Of a stretch of 49,788 nt of DNA, positions 1,338-49,504 are shown piece by piece. Origin of the DNA: Escherichia phage LL5; sequence record NC_047985.1, one strand, 5' to 3'. Both the position numbers and the translations under genes were made by a program. The notes under the pieces were generated by a model. The model searched no databases. It saw nothing but the letters and a program-made list of their open reading frames with translations, and had not been told where the DNA came from. Positions within the stretch are counted from its first letter, which is position 1. Every line of letters starts with the position of its first letter.

Positions 1338-1359
1338 AAATAGCACTTTTTGTTAAAAC
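1338..1359 (+). promoter_or_regulatory. conserved box copy 1 (AAATAGCAC-N5-TGTTAAAAC); function unknown
   Basis: TAGCA/TGTTA inverted repeat; hairpin GGGGTA..TACCCC follows; 74 nt upstream of ATG 1415. Confidence 0.7.
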
Positions 1360-1414
1360 TCGATTGGGGTAGTTTGGAATAATTACCCCATAGAAACACA
1401 ACGGAGAAAATAAA

Positions 1415-1678
1415 ATGCAATTCGAACTAACCCGCGTAACTGTTGAAATTCTGAATGACGGAACCTATGACGGAATGAAGCATTTAACATTCCCAATCAG
1501 AATTGAGAATTGCCTTGATTATGGCTTGGAAGTCGGAATGGTTGACGTTCCTCTTGATGCCCTGGTTGCGGCTGGTTATGACAAGGTAAAAGGCGGTATG
1601 AATCCAGAATCGCCGGATTGCATGGATAGTGACACGTTTTTACCGTTCAGCTATGGCGAATGCCGGATTGTTGATTAA
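1415..1678 (+). CDS. hypothetical protein (87 aa)
   Basis: ORF with GGAG SD. Confidence 0.55.
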   Translation: MQFELTRVTVEILNDGTYDGMKHLTFPIRIENCLDYGLEVGMVDVPLDALVAAGYDKVKGGMNPESPDCMDSDTFLPFSYGECRIVD

Positions 1679-1749
1679 GGTTATAAAATGAGCAGTTGGC
1701 ACAATGAGCACGTAATGCAATTCTACCGCCACAGAATAAAGAAAATGCT

Positions 1750-1771
1750 AAATAGCACGAATTGCTAAAAC
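1750..1771 (+). promoter_or_regulatory. conserved box copy 2 (AAATAGCACGAATTGCTAAAAC)
   Basis: perfect TAGCA-N5-TGCTA; followed by hairpin with loop ATTTGTTATAGC; 77 nt upstream of ATG 1830. Confidence 0.7.
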
Positions 1772-1829
1772 TAAATCAGGGGCATTTGTTATAGCGTCCC
1801 TCGTTGAGTTAAGCAAAGGAGAATCAACA

Positions 1830-2396
1830 ATGTTAAGCATCGAAAAAATCAACTTCCCGATCACCTTTAAATTCTATCATCCTGACATGCAAGTTACTTT
1901 CACCAGTAAAACGCACGGAGAATGGGGATGTGGTGGAATAACCGGATTTAAACTTGAGTATTTCGTTAACAAGCACAACAACAAAAATCCAGATAATATC
2001 CATGGCAAAGATGGGTATTATGAAATGGCTGCTTGTGGCAGAGAAGAAAAACGAGAGTATGACGATCTGTTAGACGCTTTGAAATATTTAAATATCAAGC
2101 CTGGCCAGGTCAATTTAAACGGTGCTGTATTCACTGCGTCAGTAGGTGCTAAAGATTACGATTACATTTGCAAGGTTGAAAACATGCCAGTTGGCGCAAC
2201 GCTGTTAGGTGTTCAGCGTGAAAACGGCGAATGGGACGAGTTGAAATTTAAACCACGCCGCATTGAAGTACACGACGATGTTATCTGCTTGCTTTCCGGT
2301 TATGCTGGCGGCTACAAGAGCGGCAATAATTACGGCGCTGAAATCAACATTAAGATCGGCACTAACGTAAAAATCAAAAACAGCACTAATTGCTAA
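1830..2396 (+). CDS. hypothetical protein (188 aa)
   Basis: ORF with AAGGAG SD; C-terminal residues NSTNC are encoded by box copy 3. Confidence 0.6.
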   Translation: MLSIEKINFPITFKFYHPDMQVTFTSKTHGEWGCGGITGFKLEYFVNKHNNKNPDNIHGKDGYYEMAACGREEKREYDDLLDALKYLNIKPGQVNLNGAVFTASVGAKDYDYICKVENMPVGATLLGVQRENGEWDELKFKPRRIEVHDDVICLLSGYAGGYKSGNNYGAEINIKIGTNVKIKNSTNC

Positions 2397-2399
2397 AAC
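2378..2399 (+). promoter_or_regulatory. conserved box copy 3, degenerate (AAACAGCACTAATTGCTAAAAC)
   Basis: TAG position is CAG, so upstream ORF reads through to TAA inside the box; 75 nt upstream of ATG 2456. Confidence 0.6.
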
Positions 2400-2455
2400 A
2401 AATTAACGGCCTTGCTATATAGTAAGACCATACCAAACAACGAGAGGATCACAAA

Positions 2456-2770
2456 ATGGAATTAGCACGCAACGCGGTTTATGGCTTACACCTTAAAGGC
2501 GGCAAAGGATCAACTTATGCACACCTGTTTCATGTTAACGAGCGAGGCCAAATTGATATTGCAATGTATGTTGACCAACTTGTTAAAGGTGGTGAGTACG
2601 ACAAGTTCAGGCCGGATCTGATTGAATACGATCACACATACAGTCACGACCACTGGTTAGATGGTTATAAATTTACAATGCTGGATAGCCATGTTATTGA
2701 CACAAGCAAATTAACGAATCGTGACTATAAGCGCATGGCTCGAAAAATCTTGAAGCAGAAAGCACAATAG
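2456..2770 (+). CDS. hypothetical protein (104 aa)
   Basis: ORF with GAGAGG SD. Confidence 0.55.
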   Translation: MELARNAVYGLHLKGGKGSTYAHLFHVNERGQIDIAMYVDQLVKGGEYDKFRPDLIEYDHTYSHDHWLDGYKFTMLDSHVIDTSKLTNRDYKRMARKILKQKAQ

Positions 2771-2842
2771 CACAAAATGTTAAGCGGTCATGTGTGCTGA
2801 TTGGTACAATGACCGCATCAACCAACAAGAGAGGATAGAAAA

Positions 2843-2950
2843 ATGTCAAAAGAATCAATCAAGCAGTTTCTGAAATACGGCTCTATGATTGTGCTCGCTA
2901 CCGTTGTGCTGGCTGGCATCGCGTATAGCATTATTGAGTTTGCGGGGTAA
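2843..2950 (+). CDS. small membrane peptide (35 aa)
   Basis: AGAGAGG SD; hydrophobic stretch MIVLATVVLAGIAYSII. Confidence 0.4.
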   Translation: MSKESIKQFLKYGSMIVLATVVLAGIAYSIIEFAG

Positions 2951-2953
2951 TTG

Positions 2954-3496
2954 ATGTTTACGATCAACTTGTGGGGAAGGGATTATGTTAATCCCTATGT
3001 TGCAACAAAACAGCGTTTCGTTATTTTCGACCTAGACGGCACATTGTCAAATGGTGAGCACCGCTTGCACCTGTTGCCAACGGTTGATTTGCACCTTACT
3101 GAAAGCTGGAGTGAGTTTAATCGCGCGGCTAAGGATGATTTACCGTTCAGCAATAACATTGCCGTATGCAATGCCATGTTTGATGCAGGATATCTGGTTA
3201 TCATCCTAACAGGTCGCAGTGATGAAGTTGAAGCGGAAACGCGAGAATGGTTGGCTGAAAACGGCGTTTCTTTCGATTGGCTTATTATGCGCCGCACGGA
3301 GGACAACCGGAAAGATACCGTAATCAAAGAGGAAGTTTTACGGACTATAGGACTTGATCGTATTGTGGCGTGTTGGGATGATTCACCAAACGTTATTGCA
3401 CACCTGCGCGGCCTGGGCTTGACGGTTTACCAGGTCATTGACTACGGCGACCAGTTGCACGATCACTTAAAGTCTCACGGAGTTGAGAAGTTATGA
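2954..3496 (+). CDS. HAD-superfamily phosphatase (polynucleotide 3'-phosphatase-like)
   Basis: N-terminal DxDGT motif (FVIFDLDGTL), later ILTGR and C-terminal acidic motif; resembles the phosphatase half of T4-type polynucleotide kinase. Confidence 0.65.
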   Translation: MFTINLWGRDYVNPYVATKQRFVIFDLDGTLSNGEHRLHLLPTVDLHLTESWSEFNRAAKDDLPFSNNIAVCNAMFDAGYLVIILTGRSDEVEAETREWLAENGVSFDWLIMRRTEDNRKDTVIKEEVLRTIGLDRIVACWDDSPNVIAHLRGLGLTVYQVIDYGDQLHDHLKSHGVEKL

Positions 3497-3669
3497 AACT
3501 AAAATGCATCGGTGAATATCCAGGCTTTACGGTTGGAAACATGTACAATGCGACAATAGGAATGGATCACACATTTTGTTATGAATGCTATGTTGTCATT
3601 GATGATGATGGTGATTCACGTAGCATTGATTTCGAAACAGAGGATTTTGTAGAGGATCGCTATCTGTGA
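3493..3669 (+). CDS. hypothetical protein (58 aa)
   Basis: ATGA start/stop overlap with upstream gene; GGAG SD. Confidence 0.45.
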   Translation: MKLKCIGEYPGFTVGNMYNATIGMDHTFCYECYVVIDDDGDSRSIDFETEDFVEDRYL

Positions 3670-3763
3670 TTGAAAACTATGATCCAATGGCGCTTGCCTG
3701 GGGCGTTGGTGCTTTCGTTGTGGCGGTTGTGATTTGCTTATGGGATATAAACAGGGGGGATAG

Positions 3764-3973
3764 ATGATCCTGTCCGTTGCTTATGCTAACCCCAGGGGGT
3801 GCAATATATTTGGTTTTAAGGTTGGCGGCATGGTTAACGCCAAATACGACGACAGAGGGCGTTTAATGGTTGAAGCGCCAAAGACAAAAGTAATGATGCA
3901 CGTTAAGGAGATTGGCGGAAGGTTGGCGATCAGGTCAATGGCAGGGCAAACGCTTGTTACTTTCTGTAAATAG
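3764..3973 (+). CDS. hypothetical protein (69 aa)
   Basis: ORF with GGGGGG SD; stop TAG lies inside box copy 4. Confidence 0.5.
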   Translation: MILSVAYANPRGCNIFGFKVGGMVNAKYDDRGRLMVEAPKTKVMMHVKEIGGRLAIRSMAGQTLVTFCK

Positions 3974-3989
3974 CACTTTTTGCTAAAAC
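3968..3989 (+). promoter_or_regulatory. conserved box copy 4 (AAATAGCACTTTTTGCTAAAAC)
   Basis: followed by perfect 8-bp hairpin 3995-4020 with loop TTTGATAAAG; 76 nt upstream of ATG 4047. Confidence 0.7.
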
Positions 3990-4046
3990 TTGCTAAGGCA
4001 CATTTGATAAAGTGTGCCTTGTCGAGACAAGCAAGGAGAATGACAC

Positions 4047-4301
4047 ATGAAACATTACAGGTGCGGCAGTCTTATTTATCGTGACGATTGGGTTAATATT
4101 TTTGTCGCATATTATGACAAGATGGAATTTTTTGAATCCATTTACACAAGGAGCGTTTTTAATTCAATGGTTGATGCCGGATTCATGAAAGAGTGTGAGC
4201 CACCAAAAGAGAAGCCGTTTTATAAAAATGGTGATTTCTGGCATAACGCCGTATTAATCACAGTTCTGTTAATTCTTTCTATGGGGTTTATTTTCTTATG
4301 A
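4047..4301 (+). CDS. hypothetical protein with C-terminal TM segment (84 aa)
   Basis: AAGGAG SD; C-terminal hydrophobic AVLITVLLILSMGFIFL. Confidence 0.5.
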   Translation: MKHYRCGSLIYRDDWVNIFVAYYDKMEFFESIYTRSVFNSMVDAGFMKECEPPKEKPFYKNGDFWHNAVLITVLLILSMGFIFL

Positions 4302-4480
4302 CACTTGATAATAAAGTTGAAACGCAAAAGACGATTGATTATCTGCGTGACCTGGCAGATAAGCTGGAGAATAACCAGATTCATTTAAACAAGATCGTTA
4401 TTGAATCGCGCAACGTTTGTTGGAACGTGGAAGAAGAAACATTGACAATGCAAGTTTTAAAGGCGGTAAACAATGGCTAA
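4298..4480 (+). CDS. hypothetical protein (60 aa)
   Basis: ATGA overlap with upstream stop. Confidence 0.45.
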   Translation: MTLDNKVETQKTIDYLRDLADKLENNQIHLNKIVIESRNVCWNVEEETLTMQVLKAVNNG

Positions 4481-5048
4481 AATTATCATCCTAAATGCGC
4501 CTCCTGGTGCTGGTAAAGACACAATCGGCAAGATGATTTCTTTCTATTCGCCTGGTGAGCAATGCCGCATCATTAGCTTTAAAGAGCCAATGTTTGATAT
4601 TGCATTAGCTATCCTGGGCAAAGAGAACTATCAGCGTTTCATGCTGGCTTACGATGACAGAGAGCAGAAAGAAAGGCCGCAAACGTTCCTGATGGGTATG
4701 TCGCCTCGAGAGTTCATGATCTGGATTAGCGAGGATGTGATCAAGCCTAAATTCGGCAAGGATTATTTCGGCGTAAGGTTTAACCAGAAAGTAAAAGAGT
4801 GTGATGCTCCTGTTGTTTGCACTGACGGAGGTTTTCCAGATGAAATTATCGCGCTAATCAATGCTGGTAATGAAGTGAAGCTATGCCGTTTGCATCGCGA
4901 CGGGTTCACGTTTGCAGGTGATAGCCGCAACTACATTCGAATCAATCCCTATTACCAGAAAAACGGATATAGCGAGCACGATTACTTACTAACGAATGAA
5001 AAGCCGATGATTACAGTTAGCGAAATCATTCGCGATCACCTTAAATAG
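4473..5048 (+). CDS. P-loop nucleotide or polynucleotide kinase
   Basis: Walker A near N-terminus (LNAPPGAGKDT), typical of small phage dNMP/polynucleotide kinases; stop TAG inside box copy 5. Confidence 0.65.
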   Translation: MAKIIILNAPPGAGKDTIGKMISFYSPGEQCRIISFKEPMFDIALAILGKENYQRFMLAYDDREQKERPQTFLMGMSPREFMIWISEDVIKPKFGKDYFGVRFNQKVKECDAPVVCTDGGFPDEIIALINAGNEVKLCRLHRDGFTFAGDSRNYIRINPYYQKNGYSEHDYLLTNEKPMITVSEIIRDHLK

Positions 5049-5064
5049 CACGAATTGCTAAAAC
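5043..5064 (+). promoter_or_regulatory. conserved box copy 5 (AAATAGCACGAATTGCTAAAAC)
   Basis: followed by hairpin 5071-5094 (AAGGCCA/TGGCCTT, loop TTTGATATAG). Confidence 0.7.
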
Positions 5065-5132
5065 TTGCGCAAGGCCATTTGATATAGTGGCCTTATTCAA
5101 GAGAAGCAACCAATCAGAGGAATAAACGATGA

Positions 5133-5172
5133 AAATCAAATGCACCAAATCAAATGCACCAAATCAAACACC
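5133..5172 (+). repeat. 14-bp tandem repeat (AAATCAAATGCACC x2 plus 12-bp partial copy) at 5' end of ORF
   Basis: two exact units at 5133-5146 and 5147-5160; third copy lacks TG. Confidence 0.8.
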
Positions 5173-5340
5173 CTGAATCTGACAGTTGGCGCGATTTACC
5201 ATATGGAAGAAGGTGTAAACGGGTTTAGCCAGACTGTTACGCATGAATACGGCGGTCACTTCTTCTTAAACGGTAAAGACGGATTATCTGTAAATGTTGG
5301 CTCTTTCGTTCTGGCAGAATTTGAGATCGTGGAGGAATAA
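5140..5340 (+). CDS. hypothetical protein (66 aa); start context disturbed by tandem repeat
   Basis: well-placed ATG 5129 (GAGG 8 nt upstream) is out of frame; in-frame ATG 5140 has no SD. Confidence 0.4.
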   Translation: MHQIKCTKSNTLNLTVGAIYHMEEGVNGFSQTVTHEYGGHFFLNGKDGLSVNVGSFVLAEFEIVEE

Positions 5341-5341
5341 A

Positions 5342-5506
5342 ATGTTCTGGATTCATTCGCCGCAAGGATTGCTTTATGTGCCTGGCGTTGAATTGGAAGA
5401 ACGACGCGACGGCGACACGGTAAACATCATAACGAAGGATTCAAAAGGCCATACGCTTAAAACGTATGTTTTTAACACTCCAGTTAAGGTTGAAAAAGAT
5501 GATTAA
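5342..5506 (+). CDS. hypothetical protein (54 aa)
   Basis: GGAGG SD 6 nt upstream of ATG 5342. Confidence 0.45.
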   Translation: MFWIHSPQGLLYVPGVELEERRDGDTVNIITKDSKGHTLKTYVFNTPVKVEKDD

Positions 5507-5625
5507 GATGTGGTTAATATTTATCCTGCTTGTCATAATTGGCAATATTTTGATTGTCGCTTATTGTGTTCCTTTTGGTGGCACTGTTTTGGCTATGGCT
5601 GGTTATTACGTGGGGTACAAATCAA

Positions 5626-5871: not shown

Positions 5872-5882
5872 GGAGAGTAAAC

Positions 5883-6353
5883 ATGATCGCTAAAAATGAC
5901 CTTTGCAACATGTTAACGGCTGGTAATGATTATCAGGTTTTGAATAGCACAGAAGACCATTATTTTATTGAGTGTGATAATGGGGATCGCATGTGGATTA
6001 AAAAATGCTTTTTCGAAAGCGAGCACCTAAGCAATGCAAAGCGGATCGCAGATGAAGCAAGCGCATTAGCAGAGCGTGAACGAATTCGCGATATAGTAGC
6101 TGAGCAGGTTAGAAATTCTTGTTTGCCTGGTGGCGATATCTTCAATCACGTAAAAGGCGTTGGCGGCTCAGGCTGGCAGATTAAAAAGACTGGTGATGCA
6201 ATCATTCAAAGCATCAACTATGAGCCTAACGAATACGTCAAAGTGCTGGATCAGTTGCGCGAAATCATGCGAGTGCCTGAAGGTGAAAGCATTGTGACAC
6301 ATGCAAAGGTTTTAATGGCGTTGGCTGATGCGCTGATTTGTCTGCAAAAATAG
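5883..6353 (+). CDS. hypothetical protein (156 aa)
   Basis: AGGAG SD then ATG 5883; stop TAG inside box copy 6. Confidence 0.55.
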   Translation: MIAKNDLCNMLTAGNDYQVLNSTEDHYFIECDNGDRMWIKKCFFESEHLSNAKRIADEASALAERERIRDIVAEQVRNSCLPGGDIFNHVKGVGGSGWQIKKTGDAIIQSINYEPNEYVKVLDQLREIMRVPEGESIVTHAKVLMALADALICLQK

Positions 6354-6369
6354 CACTTTTTGTTAAAAC
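6348..6369 (+). promoter_or_regulatory. conserved box copy 6 (AAATAGCACTTTTTGTTAAAAC)
   Basis: followed by hairpin 6377-6398 (loop TTTGTTAAAG, one G.T pair); 76 nt upstream of ATG 6427. Confidence 0.7.
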
Positions 6370-6426
6370 TTCCGCGAGGGCATTTGTTAAAGTGTCCTAA
6401 TTGAAGCGAAACATGGAGATTACGAA

Positions 6427-6630: not shown

Positions 6631-6633
6631 CAG

Positions 6634-14909: not shown

Positions 14910-14958
14910 CGTGCTAACACAAAAAACACTTGAACGTTTAACAAAAAATGCTATATTA

Positions 14959-24936: not shown

Positions 24937-24985
24937 TTACATGTACAATGGCAGCACGTTTAAATAGCATAAAAGGTTAAAAGCT

Positions 24986-29223: not shown

Positions 29224-30279
29224 ATGAGCGATTTTAAAGTTTACACCTTTGACCAGTTAACCAATGATAAATATCACGATCCTAAAGGTTGGGCGGCTGA
29301 ATACGTTAGCGGTTCAAGCCTGGCAGAAATCTTTGCAAGTTGTCCGGCAGCATGGAAATACAGACCACGCGAGGAAAGCAAAGCGCTTGTTTTCGGTACG
29401 CAGTCACATACCAACTTTCAAAGCAGTGAGTTGTTCGCAAAAGAGTACCGCCGAGCGCCAGCGCCGGAAGATTACGAAAACTTAATCACAAGCCAAACGG
29501 CATTAGCCAGCAAGTTAAAATCTTTTGGCCTGACTGGTACAAGCGGGAAAACTTATCCAGACCTGATAAAAATGATGGTTGATTGTGGTGAGGATCTTAA
29601 TGTTCAGTGGCTGATTGAAATGATCGCAGAAAGCGAGGCGCGAGCGGATAACGTTGAATTGGTTCCTGCTAAAGATTACGACGCTTGCGTTACCATGCGC
29701 CGCGTACTGGAAAGCATACCTGAACACAACGCTTGTATGAATAGCCCAACAGCACAACGCGAGCTATCAATTTTCGGCACTATAAAAGGCGTGAAAGTCA
29801 AAGTAAGGCTTGACCATGTTGATATTTGCAAGGATGTGCTTGCAACGGTGATTTCCGGCTATGACGGTGAAGGGAATCCGGTTTATGAAACAACGCGATT
29901 TGATGAAGCGATTGTGATCACTGATTACAAAACAACGTCAAGCGCTAACCCAACGGAGTTTTCACGGCTGGCATTTAATCATGGTTACTACTTGAAAATG
30001 GCATTGCAGCATGACCTATTCAAGAAAGCGTATCCAGAAGAAACGCGCCCCGTAGTAGTCAGATTGCTGGCGCAGGAAAAGAAAGAGCCTTATTTACCTA
30101 TTGCATACCGCATGACGGATGAACAATTGAAGATCGGACGGCTTCAATACATGAGTGTGATAAACCAGTTTGCAGAATGCCAGGAAAATGACGTTTGGCC
30201 TTCATACGCAAACGGAGAGCCTGAAATTGATCTTCAAACGCCTGATTGGGTTCGTCGTCAATACAAAGGTTTTTTATAA
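29224..30279 (+). CDS. PD-(D/E)xK exonuclease (recombination exonuclease, putative)
   Basis: motifs RLDHVD and ITDYKTT; sits upstream of Erf-like annealase. Confidence 0.6.
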   Translation: MSDFKVYTFDQLTNDKYHDPKGWAAEYVSGSSLAEIFASCPAAWKYRPREESKALVFGTQSHTNFQSSELFAKEYRRAPAPEDYENLITSQTALASKLKSFGLTGTSGKTYPDLIKMMVDCGEDLNVQWLIEMIAESEARADNVELVPAKDYDACVTMRRVLESIPEHNACMNSPTAQRELSIFGTIKGVKVKVRLDHVDICKDVLATVISGYDGEGNPVYETTRFDEAIVITDYKTTSSANPTEFSRLAFNHGYYLKMALQHDLFKKAYPEETRPVVVRLLAQEKKEPYLPIAYRMTDEQLKIGRLQYMSVINQFAECQENDVWPSYANGEPEIDLQTPDWVRRQYKGFL

Positions 30280-30299
30280 ATAGCACTTTTTGCTAAAAA
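30278..30299 (+). promoter_or_regulatory. conserved box copy 7 (AAATAGCACTTTTTGCTAAAA)
   Basis: followed by perfect 8-bp hairpin 30308-30331 whose loop holds TATACT; 76 nt upstream of ATG 30357. Confidence 0.7.
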
Positions 30300-30356
30300 A
30301 GCCATTAGATGCGTGGTATACTACACGCATCAACCAACGAGAGAGAGGAAATAAAA

Positions 30357-35421: not shown

Positions 35422-35478
35422 TTATCAACCTCCAAATAAAAACCTGGCACGATGATAAACCATGCCAGGCCGGAATTT

Positions 35479-36087
35479 TTAGCAATCAGTGCTATCGACG
35501 GAAATCACAACGCGTTTCTTCTGATTGGCTTCCTTTGCTTTGCGCCGTTCTTCTTTCGCCTTTTCGCGTTCAGCTTTGCGCCGCGCTTTCTCCTTCTCGC
35601 GTTCTTCTGGACTCATAGACCTCAACGGATCGTAAGGCCGGACAAATCCTCTTGCTTCCGCTTCCTCTTTGGTTACAAATCGCATCAGCTTTCTGTTGCT
35701 GCAACGATTCTCTAATGGCTTGCCGTTATTATCAAATTTGATATCTGGACGGCAATATGAAGCGCGGAAGCCGTTAAAACCTTTGCGTCGGTAATCTTTC
35801 TGGATCAGTTCAGCGCCTTTAGTTGAAATCATTCCGCGCTCTTTCCATCCCCATACTGTTTTAAGGTTAACGCCAATTTCACGCGCCAGGGCAGCGCAAC
35901 CGCCGTAAGCGTTGACAACTTCATCAAGCCGTGCTTTTAATCCTGCTCTTACTTCTTCCTTTAATACAAGATAACCGCTAACAGGTGAGCGACGTTTACG
36001 ATCTTTACCACGTCTTACGCCGTTGTTACCATTGATTGTGCGTTTGTCGATTTCGCCAGTTGAGGCAGCAATTTTGATTTCGCTCAT
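35479..36087 (-). CDS. putative DNA-binding protein with basic C-terminal tail
   Basis: HTH-like AALAREIGVNLKTVWGWKERG; Lys/Arg/Glu-rich C-terminus. Confidence 0.45.
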   Translation of the reverse strand: MSEIKIAASTGEIDKRTINGNNGVRRGKDRKRRSPVSGYLVLKEEVRAGLKARLDEVVNAYGGCAALAREIGVNLKTVWGWKERGMISTKGAELIQKDYRRKGFNGFRASYCRPDIKFDNNGKPLENRCSNRKLMRFVTKEEAEARGFVRPYDPLRSMSPEEREKEKARRKAEREKAKEERRKAKEANQKKRVVISVDSTDC

Positions 36088-36095
36088 ATTTTCAC

Positions 36096-36119
36096 CTATA
36101 GCACTTTTTGCTAAAAAAC
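36096..36119 (+). promoter_or_regulatory. conserved box copy 8 (TATAGCACTTTTTGCTAAAAAAC)
   Basis: in divergent intergenic region; 77 nt upstream of ATG 36176. Confidence 0.65.
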
Positions 36120-36175
36120 TTGATTAAGTTTGTGTATGATATTCCGCAAATGGCATTTAGTCAAAAGGATAAAAA

Positions 36176-38151: not shown

Positions 38152-38559
38152 ATGGTTACTGACAAAGGAGATTATCTGGAGTATTACAACAAATCAGATC
38201 CAGACGATAGGAAGGAGGAAGCGCACCAGGTTGATTCTTATTCATGGCTAACATATGAGTTTCCCATGTGGCTTGTTTGGCACACTAAAAACGAGGGGAA
38301 GAAAACCATAGGCACAGCCGTAAAGGATAAGCAAGCGGGTGTGAAGAAGGGAGTTAGCGACATTCTAATTCTGACTGGTTTTATTGGCTGCAAGTATTCA
38401 TTTATAGCCATTGAGCTTAAACGCGCCAACAAGAAAGGCACGAAGGTAAGCTACGAACAAAAGGAATTCTTGCGACGTGTCAGAGAGTGCGGAGGATTTG
38501 CCGCCGTATGCTATGGAGTAGAGCAAGTAAAATTGGCTATCGCAGACGCTACAAAATAG
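38152..38559 (+). CDS. VRR-NUC domain nuclease
   Basis: GVSDILIL...IAIELKR...YEQKEFL core. Confidence 0.65.
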   Translation: MVTDKGDYLEYYNKSDPDDRKEEAHQVDSYSWLTYEFPMWLVWHTKNEGKKTIGTAVKDKQAGVKKGVSDILILTGFIGCKYSFIAIELKRANKKGTKVSYEQKEFLRRVRECGGFAAVCYGVEQVKLAIADATK

Positions 38560-38575
38560 CACTTTTTGTTAAAAC
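38554..38575 (+). promoter_or_regulatory. conserved box copy 9 (AAATAGCACTTTTTGTTAAAAC)
   Basis: TAG is the VRR-NUC stop; hairpin GGCGCA/TGCGCC 38577-38594 then CATAAT; 74 nt upstream of ATG 38631. Confidence 0.7.
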
Positions 38576-38630
38576 AGGCGCAACGGAATGCGCCATAATG
38601 CACCCATCAGAACGAAACGGAGAATTAACC

Positions 38631-39652: not shown

Positions 39653-39883
39653 ATGAGCATTCGATTAGCCGATCACATGAAATGGGATTTATTTGTCGGT
39701 ATGACAATTCGCTTACTTGATAAGCATGGTTATAACGATGATAAAATGGAGTTGATAAACTGCCTGGATATGACATTTGACGAAATCAAAGTTGCGCCTT
39801 TGTACATGTGGGAAAGAAAAATTGAGCACGACCTGATACAATACAAACGCAGAGAGGGCGCACGATTTTTTAATGTGAAATAG
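39653..39883 (+). CDS. hypothetical protein (76 aa)
   Basis: start adjacent to MTase stop; stop TAG inside box copy 10. Confidence 0.5.
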   Translation: MSIRLADHMKWDLFVGMTIRLLDKHGYNDDKMELINCLDMTFDEIKVAPLYMWERKIEHDLIQYKRREGARFFNVK

Positions 39884-39899
39884 CACTTTTTGTTAAAAC
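39878..39899 (+). promoter_or_regulatory. conserved box copy 10 (AAATAGCACTTTTTGTTAAAAC)
   Basis: followed by CCCGCTACGGCGGG plus TTTT (same hairpin as after copy 12); 74 nt upstream of ATG 39955. Confidence 0.7.
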
Positions 39900-39954
39900 C
39901 CGCTACGGCGGGTTTTGTATTATGTTCTTAACGGAAAACAAGAGGATTTCAAAA

Positions 39955-43265: not shown

Positions 43266-43460
43266 CTAAAATTTTCTAACATGAATTAGCAATTCACCAT
43301 CATGATTTGTCAGTTGATGCTCTTGATCCCCAAACGCTCGCATATCGCTGTAAAGCAACAGCATTAACGCATATACAAAATCATCATGCGGAATTTGCAT
43401 TGCTGAACTTTCTTTCAAAATAAGATCTATAAAATGCTGGCTTGCTGAATAATTCTTCAT
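43266..43460 (-). CDS. hypothetical ORF (64 aa), possibly the frameshifted C-terminal part of the upstream gene
   Basis: no convincing SD; ends just before terminator. Confidence 0.3.
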   Translation of the reverse strand: MKNYSASQHFIDLILKESSAMQIPHDDFVYALMLLLYSDMRAFGDQEHQLTNHDGELLIHVRKF

Positions 43461-43776: not shown

Positions 43777-43778
43777 GA

Positions 43779-45359
43779 TTACCCCATTAACGCCGGATTT
43801 ACATAAACAAATTTACCAACGCTGCAAACATAATTCTTTTCTTCAAGCATTGGCAATAATTGTTCCTCAATTCGTTTCATCACGCCTGATTGACCTGTAA
43901 ACGGCTTAACCTTACGCGCACTTTCATAGATAGCTCTTGCATTGGTAACTCCTTTATTTTGACGTGAGATCTTAATGATGATTTCAATTAACTTGCTCAT
44001 TTCGGCATCATCGCCAGCGTGACCTGAAGCATTCGCGGCGTTGATATATGTTTTGCTTAATTCGCTGAACATCACCAAAGCCTCTTGCATTGTCTCAACT
44101 TCAATTTCTCGAGACTTTTGCGGCGTACAGTTTGGATTAAACCAATTACGGATCGTGTGCAATACTGACGCAATGCGGATCACTTGCTTATCCATTTTAC
44201 CCAAAGCACCACGCAACATTGTATGTGAATATTTCCCGCCGTCTGCTAAATCTGGCTCTAATTGCTGGCGAGCAATATTAAGAACACGCATTGCAGAACG
44301 TGACGGCTTCAATACCACATTTTGTTCAGTCATAATGTTATGAATCAACTGGAAATATTGCGCCTTTAATTCTTTATCAACTGGCGTGTAATCAAGATCA
44401 CCATTTTCATCAATAAATACACGCTCGCCTAACATTGTTTTTTCACGTACAAGCAAGAAACGTTCACTAACACCAATACCCCGCGCCCCTGCATCCATGA
44501 TCCCTTTTATCGTTTCATCCTGGGCAATTACGCTCATGCAGCCCAACGCAACAAAACTCATATTGTTTTCAGAGGTGGCGCGAGCTATTGAAACGTGTCC
44601 TGCGTCCCATGCTTTTAGAACCAATTCACTGTTAGTCTTGCGATCACTATTAGCGTAAGTCAACCCTAGTAAGCTGTTGATGCTTGTTGCTTCATCGGAA
44701 ATGACAGCAAAGTTACCCTGGCGATTGTTAATCTTTGCTAACCCTTCCGGCGTGGTGTCTGATACCGGAAAAACGATATCGCACATTTTTTCTAACTTTT
44801 CCTCTAATTCCTCCTTTTCCTCAAACAACGCCGCTAACTCAGTGCCTGAACGTTCAGCTTTCAATTCCTTTTCAACGCCTTTTAATTTAGCCGCGATCTT
44901 CTTTCGCTCTTTCTTGCGTTGTTCGTTGATTCGCTCAACTTCACAGACCATTGGCGCAATAGCCAGGCTGTTGATTGCTGATTTACCAGTTGATGGCGGC
45001 TGACTGGTTACAACATAAAGCGCCGTTGGTTGTTCAGTGCCGTGGTACTCAACCTGGAAGCGTCCAACCATAGCTGCGGAAACGCAACCTATGAAATGCA
45101 TATAGGCCGATGATTCAGGAAATTGAACAGATTGCGCAATGCTGCGTGACAGTTTACCCACAACATCAACATCATTACCCAAAGAGATCACAGGATAACG
45201 GTCATTAGCTCCGTTGATATCCTTCACAGGTTCCCAAAAGCTGGACGATTGGCGGTAGCCGTTCGACTGAATAGCAACGCGAAGCGGCGATGTTCCCTGC
45301 GATTCTGCAATGGCTATAACTTGTTGAGGTGTCAATTTGTTGGTGTCAAAGTCAAACAT
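43779..45359 (-). CDS. P-loop NTPase (putative replicative helicase / DNA-dependent ATPase)
   Basis: Walker A QPPSTGKSA, Walker B FAVISDEAT; AGGAG SD. Confidence 0.55.
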   Translation of the reverse strand: MFDFDTNKLTPQQVIAIAESQGTSPLRVAIQSNGYRQSSSFWEPVKDINGANDRYPVISLGNDVDVVGKLSRSIAQSVQFPESSAYMHFIGCVSAAMVGRFQVEYHGTEQPTALYVVTSQPPSTGKSAINSLAIAPMVCEVERINEQRKKERKKIAAKLKGVEKELKAERSGTELAALFEEKEELEEKLEKMCDIVFPVSDTTPEGLAKINNRQGNFAVISDEATSINSLLGLTYANSDRKTNSELVLKAWDAGHVSIARATSENNMSFVALGCMSVIAQDETIKGIMDAGARGIGVSERFLLVREKTMLGERVFIDENGDLDYTPVDKELKAQYFQLIHNIMTEQNVVLKPSRSAMRVLNIARQQLEPDLADGGKYSHTMLRGALGKMDKQVIRIASVLHTIRNWFNPNCTPQKSREIEVETMQEALVMFSELSKTYINAANASGHAGDDAEMSKLIEIIIKISRQNKGVTNARAIYESARKVKPFTGQSGVMKRIEEQLLPMLEEKNYVCSVGKFVYVNPALMG

Positions 45360-45411
45360 CTAAAAATCTCCTTCTTGTTGCCGCTAATTATAACGGCAAC
45401 ATTCTACAGCC

Positions 45412-45432
45412 TTTTAGCAATTCGTGCTATTT
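45412..45432 (-). promoter_or_regulatory. conserved box copy 11 (- strand AAATAGCACGAATTGCTAAAA)
   Basis: TAG is stop of ORF 45427-45675; hairpin 45377-45400 follows; 71 nt upstream of ATG 45359. Confidence 0.7.
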
Positions 45433-45675
45433 GATCGGCTCAACCCTGGCTAATAACTTTCCGTCTATAATGCTATGACATTCAAGAGTTTTAGGATCGA
45501 ACGCAAGCGAACGATGGAACGTATGACCAATCAGCAAATATGAATGCTTATCCCTGATGCGATATACCGTTTCACCTTCATTTAATGACGATATCGCACT
45601 AAAAACAACCTTGTAACGGTATTTTTGCATGGCCTCAGAACGGTGAGGGATGTAGTCTTTTTCCGGTAGGATCAT
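45427..45675 (-). CDS. hypothetical protein (82 aa)
   Basis: ORF; stop inside box. Confidence 0.45.
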   Translation of the reverse strand: MILPEKDYIPHRSEAMQKYRYKVVFSAISSLNEGETVYRIRDKHSYLLIGHTFHRSLAFDPKTLECHSIIDGKLLARVEPIK

Positions 45676-46061
45676 GAATATTTAGCCTCAAACAGATAAG
45701 CGCCGCCAGCGGCTGAAAATCCAACTTCTTCCCTATACAGCGTGAAACGATCGCCGTTTTCGTCGAATACGTATCCAGCAACAGCACCTAACACGCGGCC
45801 TTGCTCGATCTGGTAACGCTTATCGGCTTTGAAAGTTTTCTTGATCTGCATGGAGTGATTTACCCATGTGCATTTAATGGTTTTGGTCTTAACGTGGCGA
45901 TAGCCTGGCTCATAAGCATCACACCATTTTGAACCTTTCGCCAACTCGCGAACCTGGAATACCTCCATTTCAACAACTTCACCGCTATCATTAAAAGGAA
46001 CCATTACCGCTTTAAAGCGAGCATTCATTAGTTTGTTGTCAGAGTTGCGAATTACTTTCAT
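45672..46061 (-). CDS. hypothetical protein (129 aa)
   Basis: GGAG SD before first ATG (46061). Confidence 0.5.
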   Translation of the reverse strand: MKVIRNSDNKLMNARFKAVMVPFNDSGEVVEMEVFQVRELAKGSKWCDAYEPGYRHVKTKTIKCTWVNHSMQIKKTFKADKRYQIEQGRVLGAVAGYVFDENGDRFTLYREEVGFSAAGGAYLFEAKYS

Positions 46062-46062
46062 T

Positions 46063-46257
46063 TTATTTCTCCACAATTTCAAATTTAGCAACAGTGCCGC
46101 AACAAGTATCCATTACAAGATTTTTATCTAACTGGATTTTTGCCCTTCCATATTTAACCAACACTTTACCGTTATCATCAATCCATCCTTTGTGTATGTA
46201 GTCAACCGTATAACTTTTTGCGCGGCTGGCTACGCATTTCAACTTTATAGGCTTCAT
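46063..46257 (-). CDS. hypothetical protein (64 aa)
   Basis: AGGAGG SD before ATG 46257. Confidence 0.45.
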   Translation of the reverse strand: MKPIKLKCVASRAKSYTVDYIHKGWIDDNGKVLVKYGRAKIQLDKNLVMDTCCGTVAKFEIVEK

Positions 46258-46301
46258 TGTTTCCTCCTGTTGTCTGTAATGTAACAAACCCGCCGTAGCG
46301 G

Positions 46302-46323
46302 GTTTTAACATTTTGTGCTATTT
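46302..46323 (-). promoter_or_regulatory. conserved box copy 12 (- strand AAATAGCACAAAATGTTAAAAC)
   Basis: TAG is stop of the C5-MTase-like gene; followed by CCCGCTACGGCGGG hairpin plus TTTG; 63 nt upstream of ATG 46257. Confidence 0.7.
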
Positions 46324-47013
46324 CTGATTTGCAAGGCAGATCGCCAGGGCGAAGCCGCGAGGGGTGAGAGAGCGGATCAGTTTTGTGCGCTTAGACTTGC
46401 CTCCCAACTTCTGCCAGCCTGGATTGTTGTTCCCTGTTGGCAATACTGCGTTTGTATCCGGCATCACAAAACCGTTACCCGTCCAAAGGCAAGTTTTTTT
46501 GGTGTACGCATCGCGAGCAGGAATGATTTCAGGAAAGTGAGGATGCTTATCATCTTCCGGCAACAGACCGCCAAACGCGCAAGGATGAAAGATAAAATCA
46601 GGTTGCCGCCACATCGACGACAGGACGCTAACAGGATTCTCGATCATGTATGGCGCATTGAACCAATCCGCAATTTCAGCCGCAATCTTGCATGTTGAAA
46701 CGGCCTTATCCTGGAATAGCGGATCACGTTCACGCTTTGCGGCAAAGTGACGCGAACCGCTAACAGCTAAATCAGTGCAGGGAGGAAATGCAATTACAAA
46801 ATCAGGCTTTCCGTAAACCTCATTGCGAGCCTTAAAGCTGAAATCTGAATCAATCCAAACGTTTACATACTCAATGTTGGGATGACTTACCCGCACTGAA
46901 TGGTAATCACCATGATCGGCATCATCATAATTGAAACAGATTACTTTGTTACCACGTTCAGCCCACGGCAAAGCGGCATAACCTGAACCATCAAAAAGAG
47001 AGAAAATCAACAT
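46318..47013 (-). CDS. DNA (cytosine-5)-methyltransferase-like protein, unusually compact (231 aa)
   Basis: motif I-like FSLFDGSGYAALPW, motif IV-like FPPCTDLAVSG, ENV-like MIENPV; no room for a normal target-recognition domain. Confidence 0.6.
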   Translation of the reverse strand: MLIFSLFDGSGYAALPWAERGNKVICFNYDDADHGDYHSVRVSHPNIEYVNVWIDSDFSFKARNEVYGKPDFVIAFPPCTDLAVSGSRHFAAKRERDPLFQDKAVSTCKIAAEIADWFNAPYMIENPVSVLSSMWRQPDFIFHPCAFGGLLPEDDKHPHFPEIIPARDAYTKKTCLWTGNGFVMPDTNAVLPTGNNNPGWQKLGGKSKRTKLIRSLTPRGFALAICLANQK

Positions 47014-47120
47014 GTTTAAATCCTTTGTGTATGACCTTGTAAGGAGTTTTGTTTAGTGGTGTCGCAATTGTATTAGTTGCAGCCTGAAATCGCCACGCGA
47101 TGCGAAACAGGCCGCAAATT

Positions 47121-47198
47121 TTACTTACAGAACGGGCAGGTAGTTTTATCTCCGCTACCGCCGTGACGTGGACAGCAAATTTTTTCGATTGGAGTCAT
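47121..47198 (-). CDS. small zinc-ribbon peptide (25 aa, putative)
   Basis: GAGGA SD; CCPRH...CPFC. Confidence 0.3.
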   Translation of the reverse strand: MTPIEKICCPRHGGSGDKTTCPFCK

Positions 47199-47208
47199 GA
47201 TAAAATCC

Positions 47209-47448
47209 TCAAAATGGAAAACATCTTTTGCAAGATGGGTCGAAGTTACAATCGCAATCATTAACAATCGCGTTAGGATCAGCAAGCATAAAGCCGCTTT
47301 CATGGTTCATATCCATAGCGCCTAATGCATCATCAAGCGTCATTTCAAGATACGCAACTTTTAAAGCATACTCGCGATTTAATCCAGCTTGTTCAGCCTC
47401 ATGCAGTCGAGCAAAAAACGGATCATCATATTTCTTTGCGTCAACCAT
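47209..47448 (-). CDS. hypothetical protein (79 aa)
   Basis: GGAG SD 9 nt before ATG 47448. Confidence 0.45.
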   Translation of the reverse strand: MVDAKKYDDPFFARLHEAEQAGLNREYALKVAYLEMTLDDALGAMDMNHESGFMLADPNAIVNDCDCNFDPSCKRCFPF

Positions 47449-47453
47449 CTTTA

Positions 47454-47675
47454 TTAACTCCACTTTTCAATAAACATAGAAAGGTCATCAATTAGCGCGT
47501 AAACGTCAGCCTCAGTAAAGCGGCGAATCTTACCGCCTGGATGTTCTCCAACAGCGTAACCAGTTTTTACGCGGGTAATCGTTAACTGATGGAATCCAGA
47601 AGCGCGATCCATTTTCAAAACTACTTTCCCGTGAGCTTTGACAATGTTCATGATGGATTCAGTTTTCAGTTTCAT
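47454..47675 (-). CDS. hypothetical protein (73 aa)
   Basis: ORF 74 nt downstream of box copy 13. Confidence 0.45.
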   Translation of the reverse strand: MKLKTESIMNIVKAHGKVVLKMDRASGFHQLTITRVKTGYAVGEHPGGKIRRFTEADVYALIDDLSMFIEKWS

Positions 47676-47731
47676 TTTTGATTCTCAATTTTGTTTGTGT
47701 GAAAGTATGATACCAATCAGAGCGATATAGT

Positions 47732-47752
47732 TTTTAACTATTCGTGCTATTT
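47732..47752 (-). promoter_or_regulatory. conserved box copy 13 (- strand AAATAGCACGAATAGTTAAAA)
   Basis: upstream ORF reads through the box in frame (C-terminal NSTNS) and stops at its TAA. Confidence 0.65.
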
Positions 47753-47901
47753 ACAGCGATAAACGGATATCCGGTTAAATCTGCGTTGCGGTATCTGGCA
47801 GACCTTACCCAACAGCCCGACTTACTCATAATCAACGCGTTTTTGTGGCGAAGGTTTACGCGGTAAATCCTTCCTGTTTTGATGTTTTTGAAATAGGTCA
47901 T
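47734..47901 (-). CDS. hypothetical protein (55 aa)
   Basis: GAGG SD; ATG overlaps stop of upstream gene. Confidence 0.4.
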   Translation of the reverse strand: MTYFKNIKTGRIYRVNLRHKNALIMSKSGCWVRSARYRNADLTGYPFIAVNSTNS

Positions 47902-48131
47902 AATTTAACCTCATGATATTCTATGAATTCTTGCACATATGCGCATTCGCGCGGCGACTCCTGGCCTTTTAGAACTTCACAGCCACCATTAAACAGATAG
48001 CAATGCTGGCAAATGTTGCCGCCTACGTTTTCCTAAGCGATCTGAATTCCGGTACACAAACCGCCACCAAACCTATGAGGAAAATCGTAAGCCTGGCAGC
48101 GGCACGTTACTTGATGCCGCTTTCTGGTCAT
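47898..48131 (-). CDS. small Cys-rich protein interrupted by an in-frame TAG (amber) codon
   Basis: ATG overlaps upstream stop; TAG at 48033-48035 after 32 codons; frame continues 44 codons with no start to TGA that overlaps next ATG. Confidence 0.4.
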
Positions 48132-48400
48132 TAAATGTTCTCGCTGATAAATTTGATTACTTCACGAAGATGTTTTTCATCTTTGATAGTTGCTGGCAAT
48201 TCTTCCTTAACTTCTTGTTTCAGGTAAACGTTGCCGTTCCAGGTAAAAGAGCCATCATTGTTAATCAGGTAATAGCAAAGCCATTCGCAATCGTTATCCG
48301 CTTCCCAAATGCAAAGGATATCGCCATTCCCGAAATCCTCAACGCTTAACTTAATGCCACGCTTAACAGCAAAGTTAGTAGTTGTTTTTGATACCATCAT
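48131..48400 (-). CDS. hypothetical protein (89 aa)
   Basis: GGAG SD; 74 nt downstream of box copy 14. Confidence 0.5.
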   Translation of the reverse strand: MMVSKTTTNFAVKRGIKLSVEDFGNGDILCIWEADNDCEWLCYYLINNDGSFTWNGNVYLKQEVKEELPATIKDEKHLREVIKFISENI

Positions 48401-48456
48401 TTTAAATTCTCCGGTTCGTTTCGATGAATGTATTATGCCAAAACAAACCGGATCGC

Positions 48457-48477
48457 TTTTAACAAAAAGTGCTATTT
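48457..48477 (-). promoter_or_regulatory. conserved box copy 14 (- strand AAATAGCACTTTTTGTTAAAA)
   Basis: TAG is stop of ORF 48472-48684; GCATAAT motif in downstream region. Confidence 0.7.
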
Positions 48478-48684
48478 AACAAGTTCGGCCTCAGACCCTA
48501 AAACAAAATTAAAATATCCTTGTATTGGAAAAACATTCTTTTTTACTCCAAACTTCAAAAACTCATCACATGGAACCCTTACAAGGCGACTGCAATTTAA
48601 ATTGCATCCTTTTACTATGATGGGAAAGTTAATTTCACATGCAAAAGAAAAGCCGCCATCATTTAACAATTTATATTGTTTCAT
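48472..48684 (-). CDS. hypothetical Cys-containing protein (70 aa)
   Basis: GGAGAG SD; stop inside box. Confidence 0.45.
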   Translation of the reverse strand: MKQYKLLNDGGFSFACEINFPIIVKGCNLNCSRLVRVPCDEFLKFGVKKNVFPIQGYFNFVLGSEAELVK

Positions 48685-48878
48685 TAATCACTCTCCATGA
48701 CAATTACAGGCTCAAGGCGCTCAAGCACCACTTTGAAATCGGCGTAAAAAGTCGTACGGCGTTCAGTTAATTCTGTGTAGGTATCGGTTGCAAGGCAAGC
48801 GCGATCACCTTCATAGTACACAACGCGGTTACCATTTGCGCGACTGATTGCAACCACGCGGTAAGTGTTCTTGATCAT
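48684..48878 (-). CDS. hypothetical protein (64 aa)
   Basis: GGAG SD. Confidence 0.45.
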   Translation of the reverse strand: MIKNTYRVVAISRANGNRVVYYEGDRACLATDTYTELTERRTTFYADFKVVLERLEPVIVMESD

Positions 48879-49078
48879 TTTACGATCTCCATAACAGTCT
48901 GTGAGTCACCAGCCAGGCAGAAGTAAAACTCATTGACGCGCTGAACGTTCCAGATCAGGCCGCAATGATAGGCCACCATATCTTCAAGATCGATTGTGAT
49001 TACACGGCCTTTCTTGAATGCTGATTTATCCAGTTCTTTATTGCGGCTGATAACTTTAACGTCGATTTGAGTTTCCAT
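48875..49078 (-). CDS. hypothetical protein (67 aa)
   Basis: AGGAGAG SD; 75 nt downstream of box copy 15. Confidence 0.45.
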   Translation of the reverse strand: METQIDVKVISRNKELDKSAFKKGRVITIDLEDMVAYHCGLIWNVQRVNEFYFCLAGDSQTVMEIVK

Positions 49079-49134
49079 CGTTTGACTCTCCTGATTGGTT
49101 GATGTGTGTATTATGCCGGAATCAGATCCGGCAC

Positions 49135-49155
49135 GTTTAACAAAAAGTGCTATTT
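49135..49155 (-). promoter_or_regulatory. conserved box copy 15 (- strand AAATAGCACTTTTTGTTAAAC)
   Basis: TAG is stop of ORF 49150-49428; hairpin GCCGGA/TCCGGC 49115-49132 then GCATAATA. Confidence 0.7.
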
Positions 49156-49428
49156 AGCAAAAGCAATCAAAACTTTGTGGTGAAAATGAACATCAAGTTC
49201 AACGCTTTTGCAGTCATCCGTCATTTTGATACCGTTAAACGCAATGATGATTTCACCGTTTTCTGCGTCGATGTATTGTTCAGTGTTGGCGATGCGATAA
49301 ATGCGACCTACCGCATCCATAGGATCATCAATTTCAAAATAAGCGCATACGGCCTTTTTGAGTAGCGCATCTTTCTTACTGTTGACGGTATCGGCAATCT
49401 GTTTGGTGAATTCTGTAAGCATTGACAT
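49150..49428 (-). CDS. hypothetical protein (92 aa)
   Basis: AGGAG SD before ATG 49428 (track ORF extends to 49470 without SD). Confidence 0.45.
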   Translation of the reverse strand: MSMLTEFTKQIADTVNSKKDALLKKAVCAYFEIDDPMDAVGRIYRIANTEQYIDAENGEIIIAFNGIKMTDDCKSVELDVHFHHKVLIAFAK

Positions 49429-49482
49429 TGTTTTATCTCCTGTTGTTTCGATGTGCTCAATGTAGCGCATTCGTGCTGATTG

Positions 49483-49504
49483 GTTTTAACAAAAAGTGCT
49501 ATTC
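49483..49504 (-). promoter_or_regulatory. conserved box copy 16 (- strand GAATAGCACTTTTTGTTAAAAC)
   Basis: outermost - strand copy, next to the large noncoding region; 73 nt upstream of ATG 49428. Confidence 0.65.

Follow-up and report, generated by a model that had tools for sequence, protein, structure and literature searches.

Described systems closest to the repeat

The early and replication genes of Escherichia phage LL5 (NC_047985.1; the window below is the whole analysed stretch of 49,788 nucleotides) are preceded by many copies of a short directed repeat, here called the box. The phage is a Tlsvirus of the Drexlerviridae with about 94% identity to Escherichia phage TLS over the first 20 kb. 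The TLS paper (German, Kropinski, Misra and co-authors, PHAGE 2024, PMC11447400) described 18 intergenic 21-nt direct repeats with the consensus aaATAGCACnnnTTGnTAAAA, oriented with transcription, located about 76 nt upstream of start codons and divided into A, T and G subtypes. The repeats were also noted in T1, Rtp and Rogue1. Only three sigma70-like promoters were reported for TLS, and the function of the repeat was left as an open question, with a stoperator, an enhancer site and a UP element as suggestions (PMC11447400). The LL5 box is this TLS repeat, found in a phage of 94% identity. The TLS paper contains no description of the -10, start site, hairpin or marbox match presented here.

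The E. coli micF promoter, the archetype among class II promoters under MarA/SoxS/Rob/RamA control, shares with the phage promoters a 15/15 match to the marbox consensus, the forward orientation, a centre near -40/-41, an 18-bp spacing to the -10 and the lack of a -35 hexamer. The phage differs in having 18 near-identical, better-than-host copies per 50 kb, and in being virulent, and its promoters come together with a hairpin, stop codons upstream and a leader that is conserved. The PeSL and PmSL cassettes of T4-like phages (Arbiol 2010; Comeau 2014, PMC4122927) likewise combine a repeated promoter with a stem-loop between small early genes, and they are found at indel or replacement boundaries between close relatives, as the phage modules may be. 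However, PeSL has an ordinary -35/-10 promoter and PmSL a MotA box, with the stem-loop beside the promoter, whereas the phage module has a marbox and a stem-loop that encloses or abuts the -10. We found no earlier link between the marbox and T1-like phages in the searchable literature. The repeat itself was already known, but its interpretation as a marbox, the complete module, the statistics on the hairpin and the link to breakpoints did not turn up in that literature.

Activator boxes that replace the -35 while a good -10 is kept are familiar from the T4 middle promoters (MotA box with AsiA) and the Mor and C promoters of Mu. The MotA and Mor/C activators are phage-encoded and their boxes differ from the LL5 box in sequence and position (MotA box at about -30); in contrast, the best candidate reader of the LL5 box is a host protein. 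We read the 18 modules of the window as phage-borne class II marbox promoters with PeSL-like packaging; the marbox part of this reading, with MarA, SoxS or Rob as the reader, has a probability of roughly 0.6.

The box is an over-represented repeat directed toward the next gene

The TAGCA-N5-TGCTA core, allowing up to one mismatch, was found 19 times in the window against 1.6 expected and a maximum of 5 in 100 shuffles. This confirms that the repeat reported in the preliminary description of this DNA is real and occurs far above chance. All 16 copies listed there were found with the coordinates and strands given, and its count of at least 16 stands, but two full copies had been overlooked: copy 2768(+), which spans 2765-2786 (+) and precedes a 35-aa gene, and copy 35494(-), which spans 35497-35476 (-) and precedes the primase gene. 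The window thus contains 18 full copies, every one directed toward the next gene (18/18). The length of 22 bp was also correct, but the spacer of the pattern was not; the box is AAATAGCAC followed by 4 nt and TGYTAAAAC, and the form with N5 matches once only. Copies fall into TTT, GAA and AAA subtypes by their spacer.

The distance from the box TAG to the start codon, described earlier as nearly constant, is 70-77 nt in 16/18 copies, with the known exceptions of 63 nt at 46320(-) and 83 nt at 5046(+) and with CAG replacing TAG in copy 2381. Upstream genes stop at or inside the box in 14/18 cases. The box TAG is the stop codon in 10 (at least nine had been claimed), a TAA overlapping the leading AAA is used in one, and in three the gene is translated through the box to its inner TAA, giving C-termini such as NSTNC, as previously noted. 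The structural operon had been described as free of the box. This is true of full promoter modules, but two degenerate box-like sequences are present there, at 14957-14936 (-) and 24961-24982 (+), neither of which has a -10 at module spacing. A motif search in the window and in related phages found the box to be recurrent, oriented with transcription and fixed in its spacing.

Each box is part of a probable promoter module with an extended -10

Module anatomy was read from an ungapped alignment of the 18 window copies. The 20-bp box (ATAGCAC...TAAAAC) is followed after 18 bp by a TG-extended -10 hexamer (T-A-n-a-n-T), then by 6-7 nt, a CA, a leader with a Shine-Dalgarno sequence and the ATG. 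The TG is at -15/-14, with G in 15/18 copies. The CA lies six or seven bases past the -10, its A is present in 14/18 copies, and we infer from the -10 and the CA that it is the start site. Leaders are 21-28 nt long in 16/18 copies (14 nt at copy 46320, 34 nt at copy 5046) and are often TCGAAACGAAAC-like. The canonical -35 position (-35 to -30) reads AAAACn, with no -35 hexamer, and a consensus sigma70 scan called none of the modules and recovered the promoter of a phage regulator gene alone. The earlier statement that the box does not fit a sigma70 layout was therefore right about the -35 but missed the clear TG-extended -10 located 18 bp after the 20-bp box.

The same module was found in TLS, T1 (Tunavirinae), Rtp (Braunvirinae) and the Klebsiella phage PhiKpNIH-2 (Webervirus), and subfamilies whose proteins are only about 50% identical have an unchanged box. 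Across five phage genomes, the best -10 was at the exact module position in 77/118 consensus matches with a good -10 nearby and 1 bp off in a further 11. The box is very probably the upstream element of these 18 promoters. The fixed-distance -10 supports the promoter or regulator-site role that had been proposed, and the regulator is most likely a host one.

Several other promoter types were considered and rejected. A standard sigma70 -35/-10 promoter would have a TTGACA-like hexamer 15-19 bp upstream of the -10, and none is present; TTGYTA was rejected as a -35 hexamer for its distance of 21-22 bp to the -10. A sigma54 promoter (TGGCAC-N5-TTGC) was rejected on sequence, as the G-to-G distance is 9 nt and not 11 and the first G is absent.

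Alternatively, these could be activator-independent extended -10 promoters in which the box acts on RNA polymerase as a UP-like or surrogate element and the likeness to a marbox is incidental. T1-like phages grow fast in unstressed laboratory cells and most copies have a TGn -10, both of which would suit such an arrangement. The T-run and A-run of the box also loosely resemble UP subsites, an idea from the TLS paper (PMC11447400). However, the most conserved positions contain G or C (GCAC, TG) and are not A/T tracts, the T-run is swapped for GAA or AAA in many copies, and TTGYTA at 22 bp from the -10 is too far for sigma region 4. A UP element as such was rejected for the replaced T-tract and for the invariant G2, C3, C5 and G11. 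Near-consensus marboxes would also be expected to bind Rob or MarA in any case, as equivalent sites are bound in vivo. We consider an activator-independent box quite improbable.

The TLS paper also raised the idea of stoperator-type roadblocks or insulators, bound by a repressor and stopping elongation. The boxes are indeed intergenic and have a single orientation relative to transcription, as expected of mycobacteriophage-type stoperators, but the fixed 18-bp spacing to the -10 and the conserved start site indicate initiation, and in this virulent phage no repressor or integrase annotation was found. Boxes of this type are extremely unlikely here.

The box matches the marbox and has the geometry of micF

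The marbox of MarA, SoxS and Rob is the non-palindromic sequence 5'-gcannwwntgnnaaa-3' (Grainger laboratory, PMC12052159), and at class II promoters it is in the forward orientation, overlaps the -35 and is centred between -36 and -55 (PMC12052159). Each of the phage subtypes fits this sequence at 15/15 positions (GCAC-TT-TT-T-TG-YT-AAA, GCAC-G-AA-T-TG-CT-AAA and GCAC-A-AA-A-TG-TT-AAA), and phage boxes vary exactly where the marbox has n, w or Y. Exact marbox matches numbered 17 in the window and 19, 20, 14 and 14 in the other four of the five phage genomes, compared to 0.9-2.0 in shuffles (2.0 for the window).

A weight matrix was then built only from the 58 Salmonella sites bound in vivo by MarA, SoxS, Rob or RamA as measured by chromatin immunoprecipitation sequencing (ChIP-seq) (PMC10268841, Table 1). 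Using this matrix the modules made up 16 of the window's top 17 matches, with scores of 15.6-17.9 bits, while for the 58 bound sites themselves the median was 10.8 bits and the 90th percentile 15.8 bits. Some phage boxes, among them GCACAAATTGCTAAA in T1 and Rtp, equal the best-scoring bound site of the table letter for letter. A lone marbox match outside the modules, GCATCAACTGACAAA at 43306-43320 (-), scored 16.6 bits; it lies in coding sequence without a module-spaced -10 and is probably due to chance.

Orientation and spacing agree with those of micF. In 18/18 copies AAA is the element nearer to the downstream -10 and gene, and GCAC the one farther away. At E. coli micF, 18 bp separate the 20-bp marbox ACAGCACTGAATGTCAAAAC from the -10 TAGAAT, and the marbox centre is at -41. 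The phage spacing is the same 18 bp; relative to the start predicted from the -10 and CA, the phage box spans about -50 to -31 with its centre at -40/-41. In the paper on the RamA-polymerase structure, the micF site is given as 'CACT-7X-AAA' near -41; one helix-turn-helix occupies the -35 groove beside sigma region 4, and an alpha C-terminal domain is upstream (PMC8811837). Class II promoters characteristically have no -35 match (PMC10268841), and the phage promoters show the same poor or absent -35 with a normal -10 (AAAACn; TAnanT and TG). Solved complexes are on record for MarA, Rob, RamA and SoxS (7BEF/7BEG, 7VWY/7VWZ, 7W5W-Y, 1BL0 for MarA-DNA and 1D5Y for Rob-micF).

The preliminary description had interpreted the core as a palindrome bound by a dimeric protein. 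Two-fold symmetric conservation is absent. One half, TAGCAC, never varies, whereas the second half reads TGYTA and has a constant AAA(A) flank; the flanks differ (AAA versus AAAAC), and orientation is tied strictly to transcription. Because of this asymmetric conservation and the marbox-like degeneracy, TAGCA and TGCTA are better described as two different half-elements of an asymmetric site. Each box is probably a class II marbox and a candidate site for one monomer of MarA, SoxS or Rob, or of RamA in Klebsiella and Salmonella, judging from its match and position.

Two other classes of regulator site were tried. The half-sites of CRP or FNR class II sites fail to match, as judged from the sequence. 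The Lrp consensus YAGHAWATTWTDCTR fits the TTT subtype at 13/15 positions and the GAA subtype at only 11/15, and Lrp was dropped in favour of the marbox as it leaves orientation and spacing unexplained.

Proposed activation by host stress regulators

In the proposed mechanism a monomer of the host AraC-family proteins MarA, SoxS or Rob would bind a sigma70 promoter without a -35 hexamer, covering the -35 position and reading the asymmetric box with its two helix-turn-helix motifs. Once bound, it would contact sigma70 region 4 and an alpha C-terminal domain, as seen in the micF structures, and these contacts would stand in for the missing -35 contact. Rob would be the most plausible activator in unstressed cells, with MarA, SoxS or RamA acting under stress, and the extended -10 could supply some basal activity without an activator. 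The 18 promoters would drive small early, nucleotide-metabolism, replication and recombination genes, and each module would also close the preceding gene through stop codons and an RNA stem-loop, forming a gene-cassette junction.

A MarA-like protein was not found in the five phage genomes (tblastn with MarA; best E-value 0.35, at inconsistent places), and Pfam detected no AraC-type domain in 20 open reading frames of unknown function of at least 76 aa. Host labels of the homologues, doubtful labels aside, are Escherichia, Shigella, Salmonella, Citrobacter, Klebsiella, Enterobacter and Cronobacter. The genera that host the phage family are bacteria that carry MarA, SoxS, Rob and RamA (PMC10268841).

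If correct, the marbox promoter reading supplies the missing promoters, predicts 18 start sites to the nucleotide, corrects several gene starts and points to purified and well-studied host proteins, MarA, SoxS, Rob and RamA. If confirmed, it would give a clear example of virulent phages that rely, as a family, on a host regulon for stress and antibiotic resistance, with consequences for phage therapy of mar- or ram-upregulated Klebsiella, Salmonella and E. coli, for interactions between phages and antibiotics and for compact promoter parts that respond to stress. More tentatively, and with less than even odds, the Drexlerviridae as a whole may wire their early and replication programme to MarA, SoxS, Rob and RamA through better-than-host marboxes, tuning infection to host stress, and a reversed box in the major-capsid promoter might hold this late promoter down early. 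Cells with the mar/sox/rob regulon switched on would then express phage early genes most strongly.

A number of points weigh against host activators. Unstressed cells contain little MarA and SoxS, and under standard growth conditions most Rob is in aggregates (PMC10268841). A virulent phage that grows fast would seem to run a risk by depending on these proteins. The box is also conserved beyond what a marbox needs (5' ATAG, the T's before G, 3' AAAAC), and a more specific reader than MarA, SoxS or Rob could be involved. In the searchable literature we found neither binding, start-site or expression data for T1-like phages nor mapped transcript starts for Drexlerviridae. The same modules are present in phage Motto, whose label names Pseudomonas aeruginosa as host, and P. 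aeruginosa is not known to have MarA, SoxS or Rob. In addition, TLS-type phages, T1, Rtp and Webervirus all have a box 12-13 nt upstream of the ATG of a phage regulator gene and pointing the opposite way, and this adjacency is left unexplained by the host-activator model.

Host labels were dropped as a test of the reader since the labels are doubtful. Drexlerviridae deposited as 'Streptococcus', 'Pseudomonas' and 'Campylobacter' phages (OR786094.1, ON843697.1, MG065657.1) are close relatives and have the modules where checked. Host labels in this phage group are plainly unreliable, as in 'Streptococcus phage' MBBL140. A partial scan of IMG/VR for the box returned almost exclusively T1-like contigs of 41-53 kb. 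Use of the box by unrelated phages, which would favour a host factor, was not seen in this partial scan, where isolated matches on large contigs were coding sequence without a -10.

The phage regulator gp57 as a possible alternative reader

The regulator next to the opposed box is the homologue of TLS gp57, and it is the main phage candidate for reading the box. Made early from its canonical promoter, it would act from the class II position to switch on all box promoters, and it would turn its own promoter off. It has a Cro/YdaS-like helix-turn-helix (PHROG 2856), is a core Drexlerviridae gene present in 823 phage records and has one of only three canonical sigma70 promoters in TLS. Besides the short distance between its ATG and the box, its -10 (TATCAT 36141-36136) overlaps face-to-face with that of the helicase module (TATGAT 36135-36140). 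The region between the two genes, 36088-36175, is a divergent, switch-like region whose layout is kept in T1, Rtp and Webervirus.

However, a single Cro-type helix-turn-helix implies a dimer on a symmetric site and the box is asymmetric and oriented. The predicted recognition-helix residues change from one to another of the four subfamilies and the box does not, and with gp57 as the reader the marbox sequence, its degeneracy pattern and the micF spacing would all be chance coincidence. A compact region of divergent promoters would account for the adjacency as well. We regard gp57 as an unlikely reader, and a host activator at a class II marbox is preferred.

Hairpins and possible cassette boundaries at the modules

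Folding was assessed using 84 distinct 42-nt module regions from -32 to +9. The mean minimum free energy was -11.1 kcal/mol and the median z was -3.3 as compared to shuffles, with z < -2 in 65%. Strong inverted repeats were present in 34/84 regions compared to 4/84 shuffled regions, and their centre lies between the TG and the -10. The arms vary by module (GGGGTAA/TTACCCC, AAGGCCA/TGGCCTT, GATGCGTG/CACGCATC). Internal arm mismatches were G:T or T:G in 17 cases versus A:C or C:A in 2, a bias that points to structure in the sense-strand RNA. As the predicted start is at the end of the 3' arm, the hairpin is possible only in read-through RNA from the upstream gene. A T-run follows the hairpin in a minority of modules (35471-35441, 39878 and 46320 for example), and most are followed by the A-rich leader. 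We infer that the hairpin is the 3' stem-loop of the upstream cistron, acting as a weak terminator or stabiliser. Published work on MarA and 'DNA distortion' proved irrelevant to this hairpin.

The combined terminator/promoter junction suggested previously is partly supported by the significant hairpin at the -10, the G:T bias and the stops inside the box, but few U-tracts are present. One of the T-run hairpins, at 35471-35441 (-), is terminator-like, follows the regulator gene and corresponds to T57 in TLS. The primase module -10 is in its loop, and the terminator-like hairpin and the promoter share the same DNA. The window had no match to Rfam families.

Cassette boundaries, a comparison that the recombination-boundary role invited, were assessed as homology breakpoints between the window and TLS, Sazh and MBBL140. 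Edges of non-homologous segments fell in modules in 12/52 cases versus 3.3 expected (p about 1e-4); these represent about seven distinct events in three comparators and are not independent. The distinct events lie near 2441, 2765, 3965, 39878, 46301, 48480 and 49468, and homology often restarts exactly at the 5' edge of the box. The recombination-boundary role is partly supported by the excess of edges and weakened by the small number of non-independent events. The phage is annotated with RecE/Erf-type recombinases, and the clustering is likely a by-product of its many identical copies of a 22-bp sequence.

It could also be argued that the primary role of the modules is structural and evolutionary, with the boxes kept as part of portable PeSL-like junctions (stops, stem-loop and promoter) since recombination shuffles early-gene cassettes. 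The breakpoint excess and the homology restarts speak for such junctions, as do the significant hairpin and the 14/18 upstream genes that stop at or inside the box, and T4-like phages offer a precedent (PMC4122927). Such a role leaves the marbox sequence at micF spacing and the invariance of the box across subfamilies of about 50% identity unexplained, and the roughly seven breakpoints are shared among comparators. It is also compatible with the marbox explanation, as a side effect of it. As the primary role it is very unlikely, and we retain marbox promoters with PeSL-like packaging.

Coordinates of the modules and further observations

The modules and associated features are listed in Table 1.

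Table 1. Predicted promoter modules of the LL5 window and associated features (window positions; boxes on the - strand are written in the direction of transcription)
Feature	Coordinates	Strand	Details
Module 1	1338..1390	+	box 1338-1359; -10 region ~1377-1383; predicted transcription start ~1390; ATG 1415
Module 2	1750..1802	+	box 1750-1771 (GAA subtype); TG-extended -10 TATAGC; ATG 1830
Module 3	2378..2430	+	box 2378-2399 (CAG for TAG); -10 TATAGT; ATG 2456
Module 3 upstream gene	stop TAA 2394-2396	+	stop inside box
Module 4	2765..2817	+	box 2765-2786 (AAA subtype); TGgTACAAT; ATG 2843 (35 aa)
Module 5	3968..4020	+	box 3968-3989; hairpin aaggcaca/tgtgcctt around TGaTAAAGT; ATG 4047
Module 6	5043..5095	+	box 5043-5064; hairpin aaggcca/tggcctt around TGaTATAGT; first ATG 5129
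Module 7	6348..6400	+	box 6348-6369; TGtTAAAGT; ATG 6427
Module 8	30278..30330	+	box 30278-30299; hairpin gatgcgtg/cacgcatc around TGgTATACT; ATG 30357
Module 9	36096..36148	+	box 36096-36117; -10 TATGAT 36135-36140; helicase gene ATG 36176
Module 9 box			12 nt upstream of divergent regulator gene ATG (36087)
Module 10	38554..38606	+	box 38554-38575; -10 CATAAT; ATG 38631
Module 11	39878..39930	+	box 39878-39899; spacer GC hairpin and T-run, then TGtATTAT; ATG 39955
Module 12	35445..35497	-	box 35497-35476 within regulator gene 3' end; -10 TTATCAT; primase ATG 35421
Module 13	45380..45432	-	box 45432-45411; -10 TATAAT inside hairpin gttgccg/cggcaac; helicase-like gene ATG 45359
Module 14	46271..46323	-	box 46323-46302 (AAA subtype); spacer GC hairpin and T-run; ATG 46257
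Module 15	47700..47752	-	box 47752-47731 (TAG in place of TTG); TGgTATCAT; ATG 47675
Module 16	48425..48477	-	box 48477-48456; TGgCATAAT; ATG 48400
Module 17	49103..49155	-	box 49155-49134; CATAAT; ATG 49078
Module 18	49452..49504	-	box 49504-49483; TACATT; ATG 49428
Regulator gene (TLS gp57 homologue)	35479..36087	-	Cro/YdaS-like helix-turn-helix; PHROG 2856 'transcriptional regulator'
Regulator gene promoter	36136..36164	-	canonical sigma70 TTGACT-17-TATCAT; equivalent to TLS P57
Major-capsid-gene promoter	14930..14957	+	TTGAAC-16-(TG)TATATT; spacer and -10 are a reversed degenerate box (14957-14936, -)
Degenerate box-like AAATAGCATAAAAGGTTAAAAG	24961..24982	+	ends 4 nt before tail-fibre gene ATG (24986); no -10, not a module

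Some gene starts are affected by the modules. The first in-frame starts of the open reading frames at 30309, 38487, 39922 and 46311 precede the predicted transcription start, and some are inside the box or the -10. The starts predicted from the modules, 30357, 38631, 39955 and 46257, have Shine-Dalgarno sequences. The gp52 start in the TLS record has the same problem. At the 5' end of the gene after module 6, positions 5133-5168 form a perfect 14-bp tandem repeat (AAATCAAATGCACC, 2.6 copies), and the ATGs in different frames within this repeat probably account for the odd 83-nt distance of that module.

The reversed box in the major-capsid promoter is kept in TLS and T1 and, in more degenerate form, in the Klebsiella phage. 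This late promoter could be repressed by a factor that binds the box; alternatively, the likeness may only reflect the TGnTA of a reversed box.

A second over-represented word, CCAATCAG/CTGATTGG, was found in 25 copies in the window (10 + and 15 -) against about 1.5 expected, with examples at 1336(-), 5110(+), 17073(+), 27955(+), 36735(-) and 49098(-). Its copies are spread over coding and non-coding DNA, including the structural genes. TLS has 23 copies, and T1 has AACCAGTCAG/CTGACTGGTT in its place.

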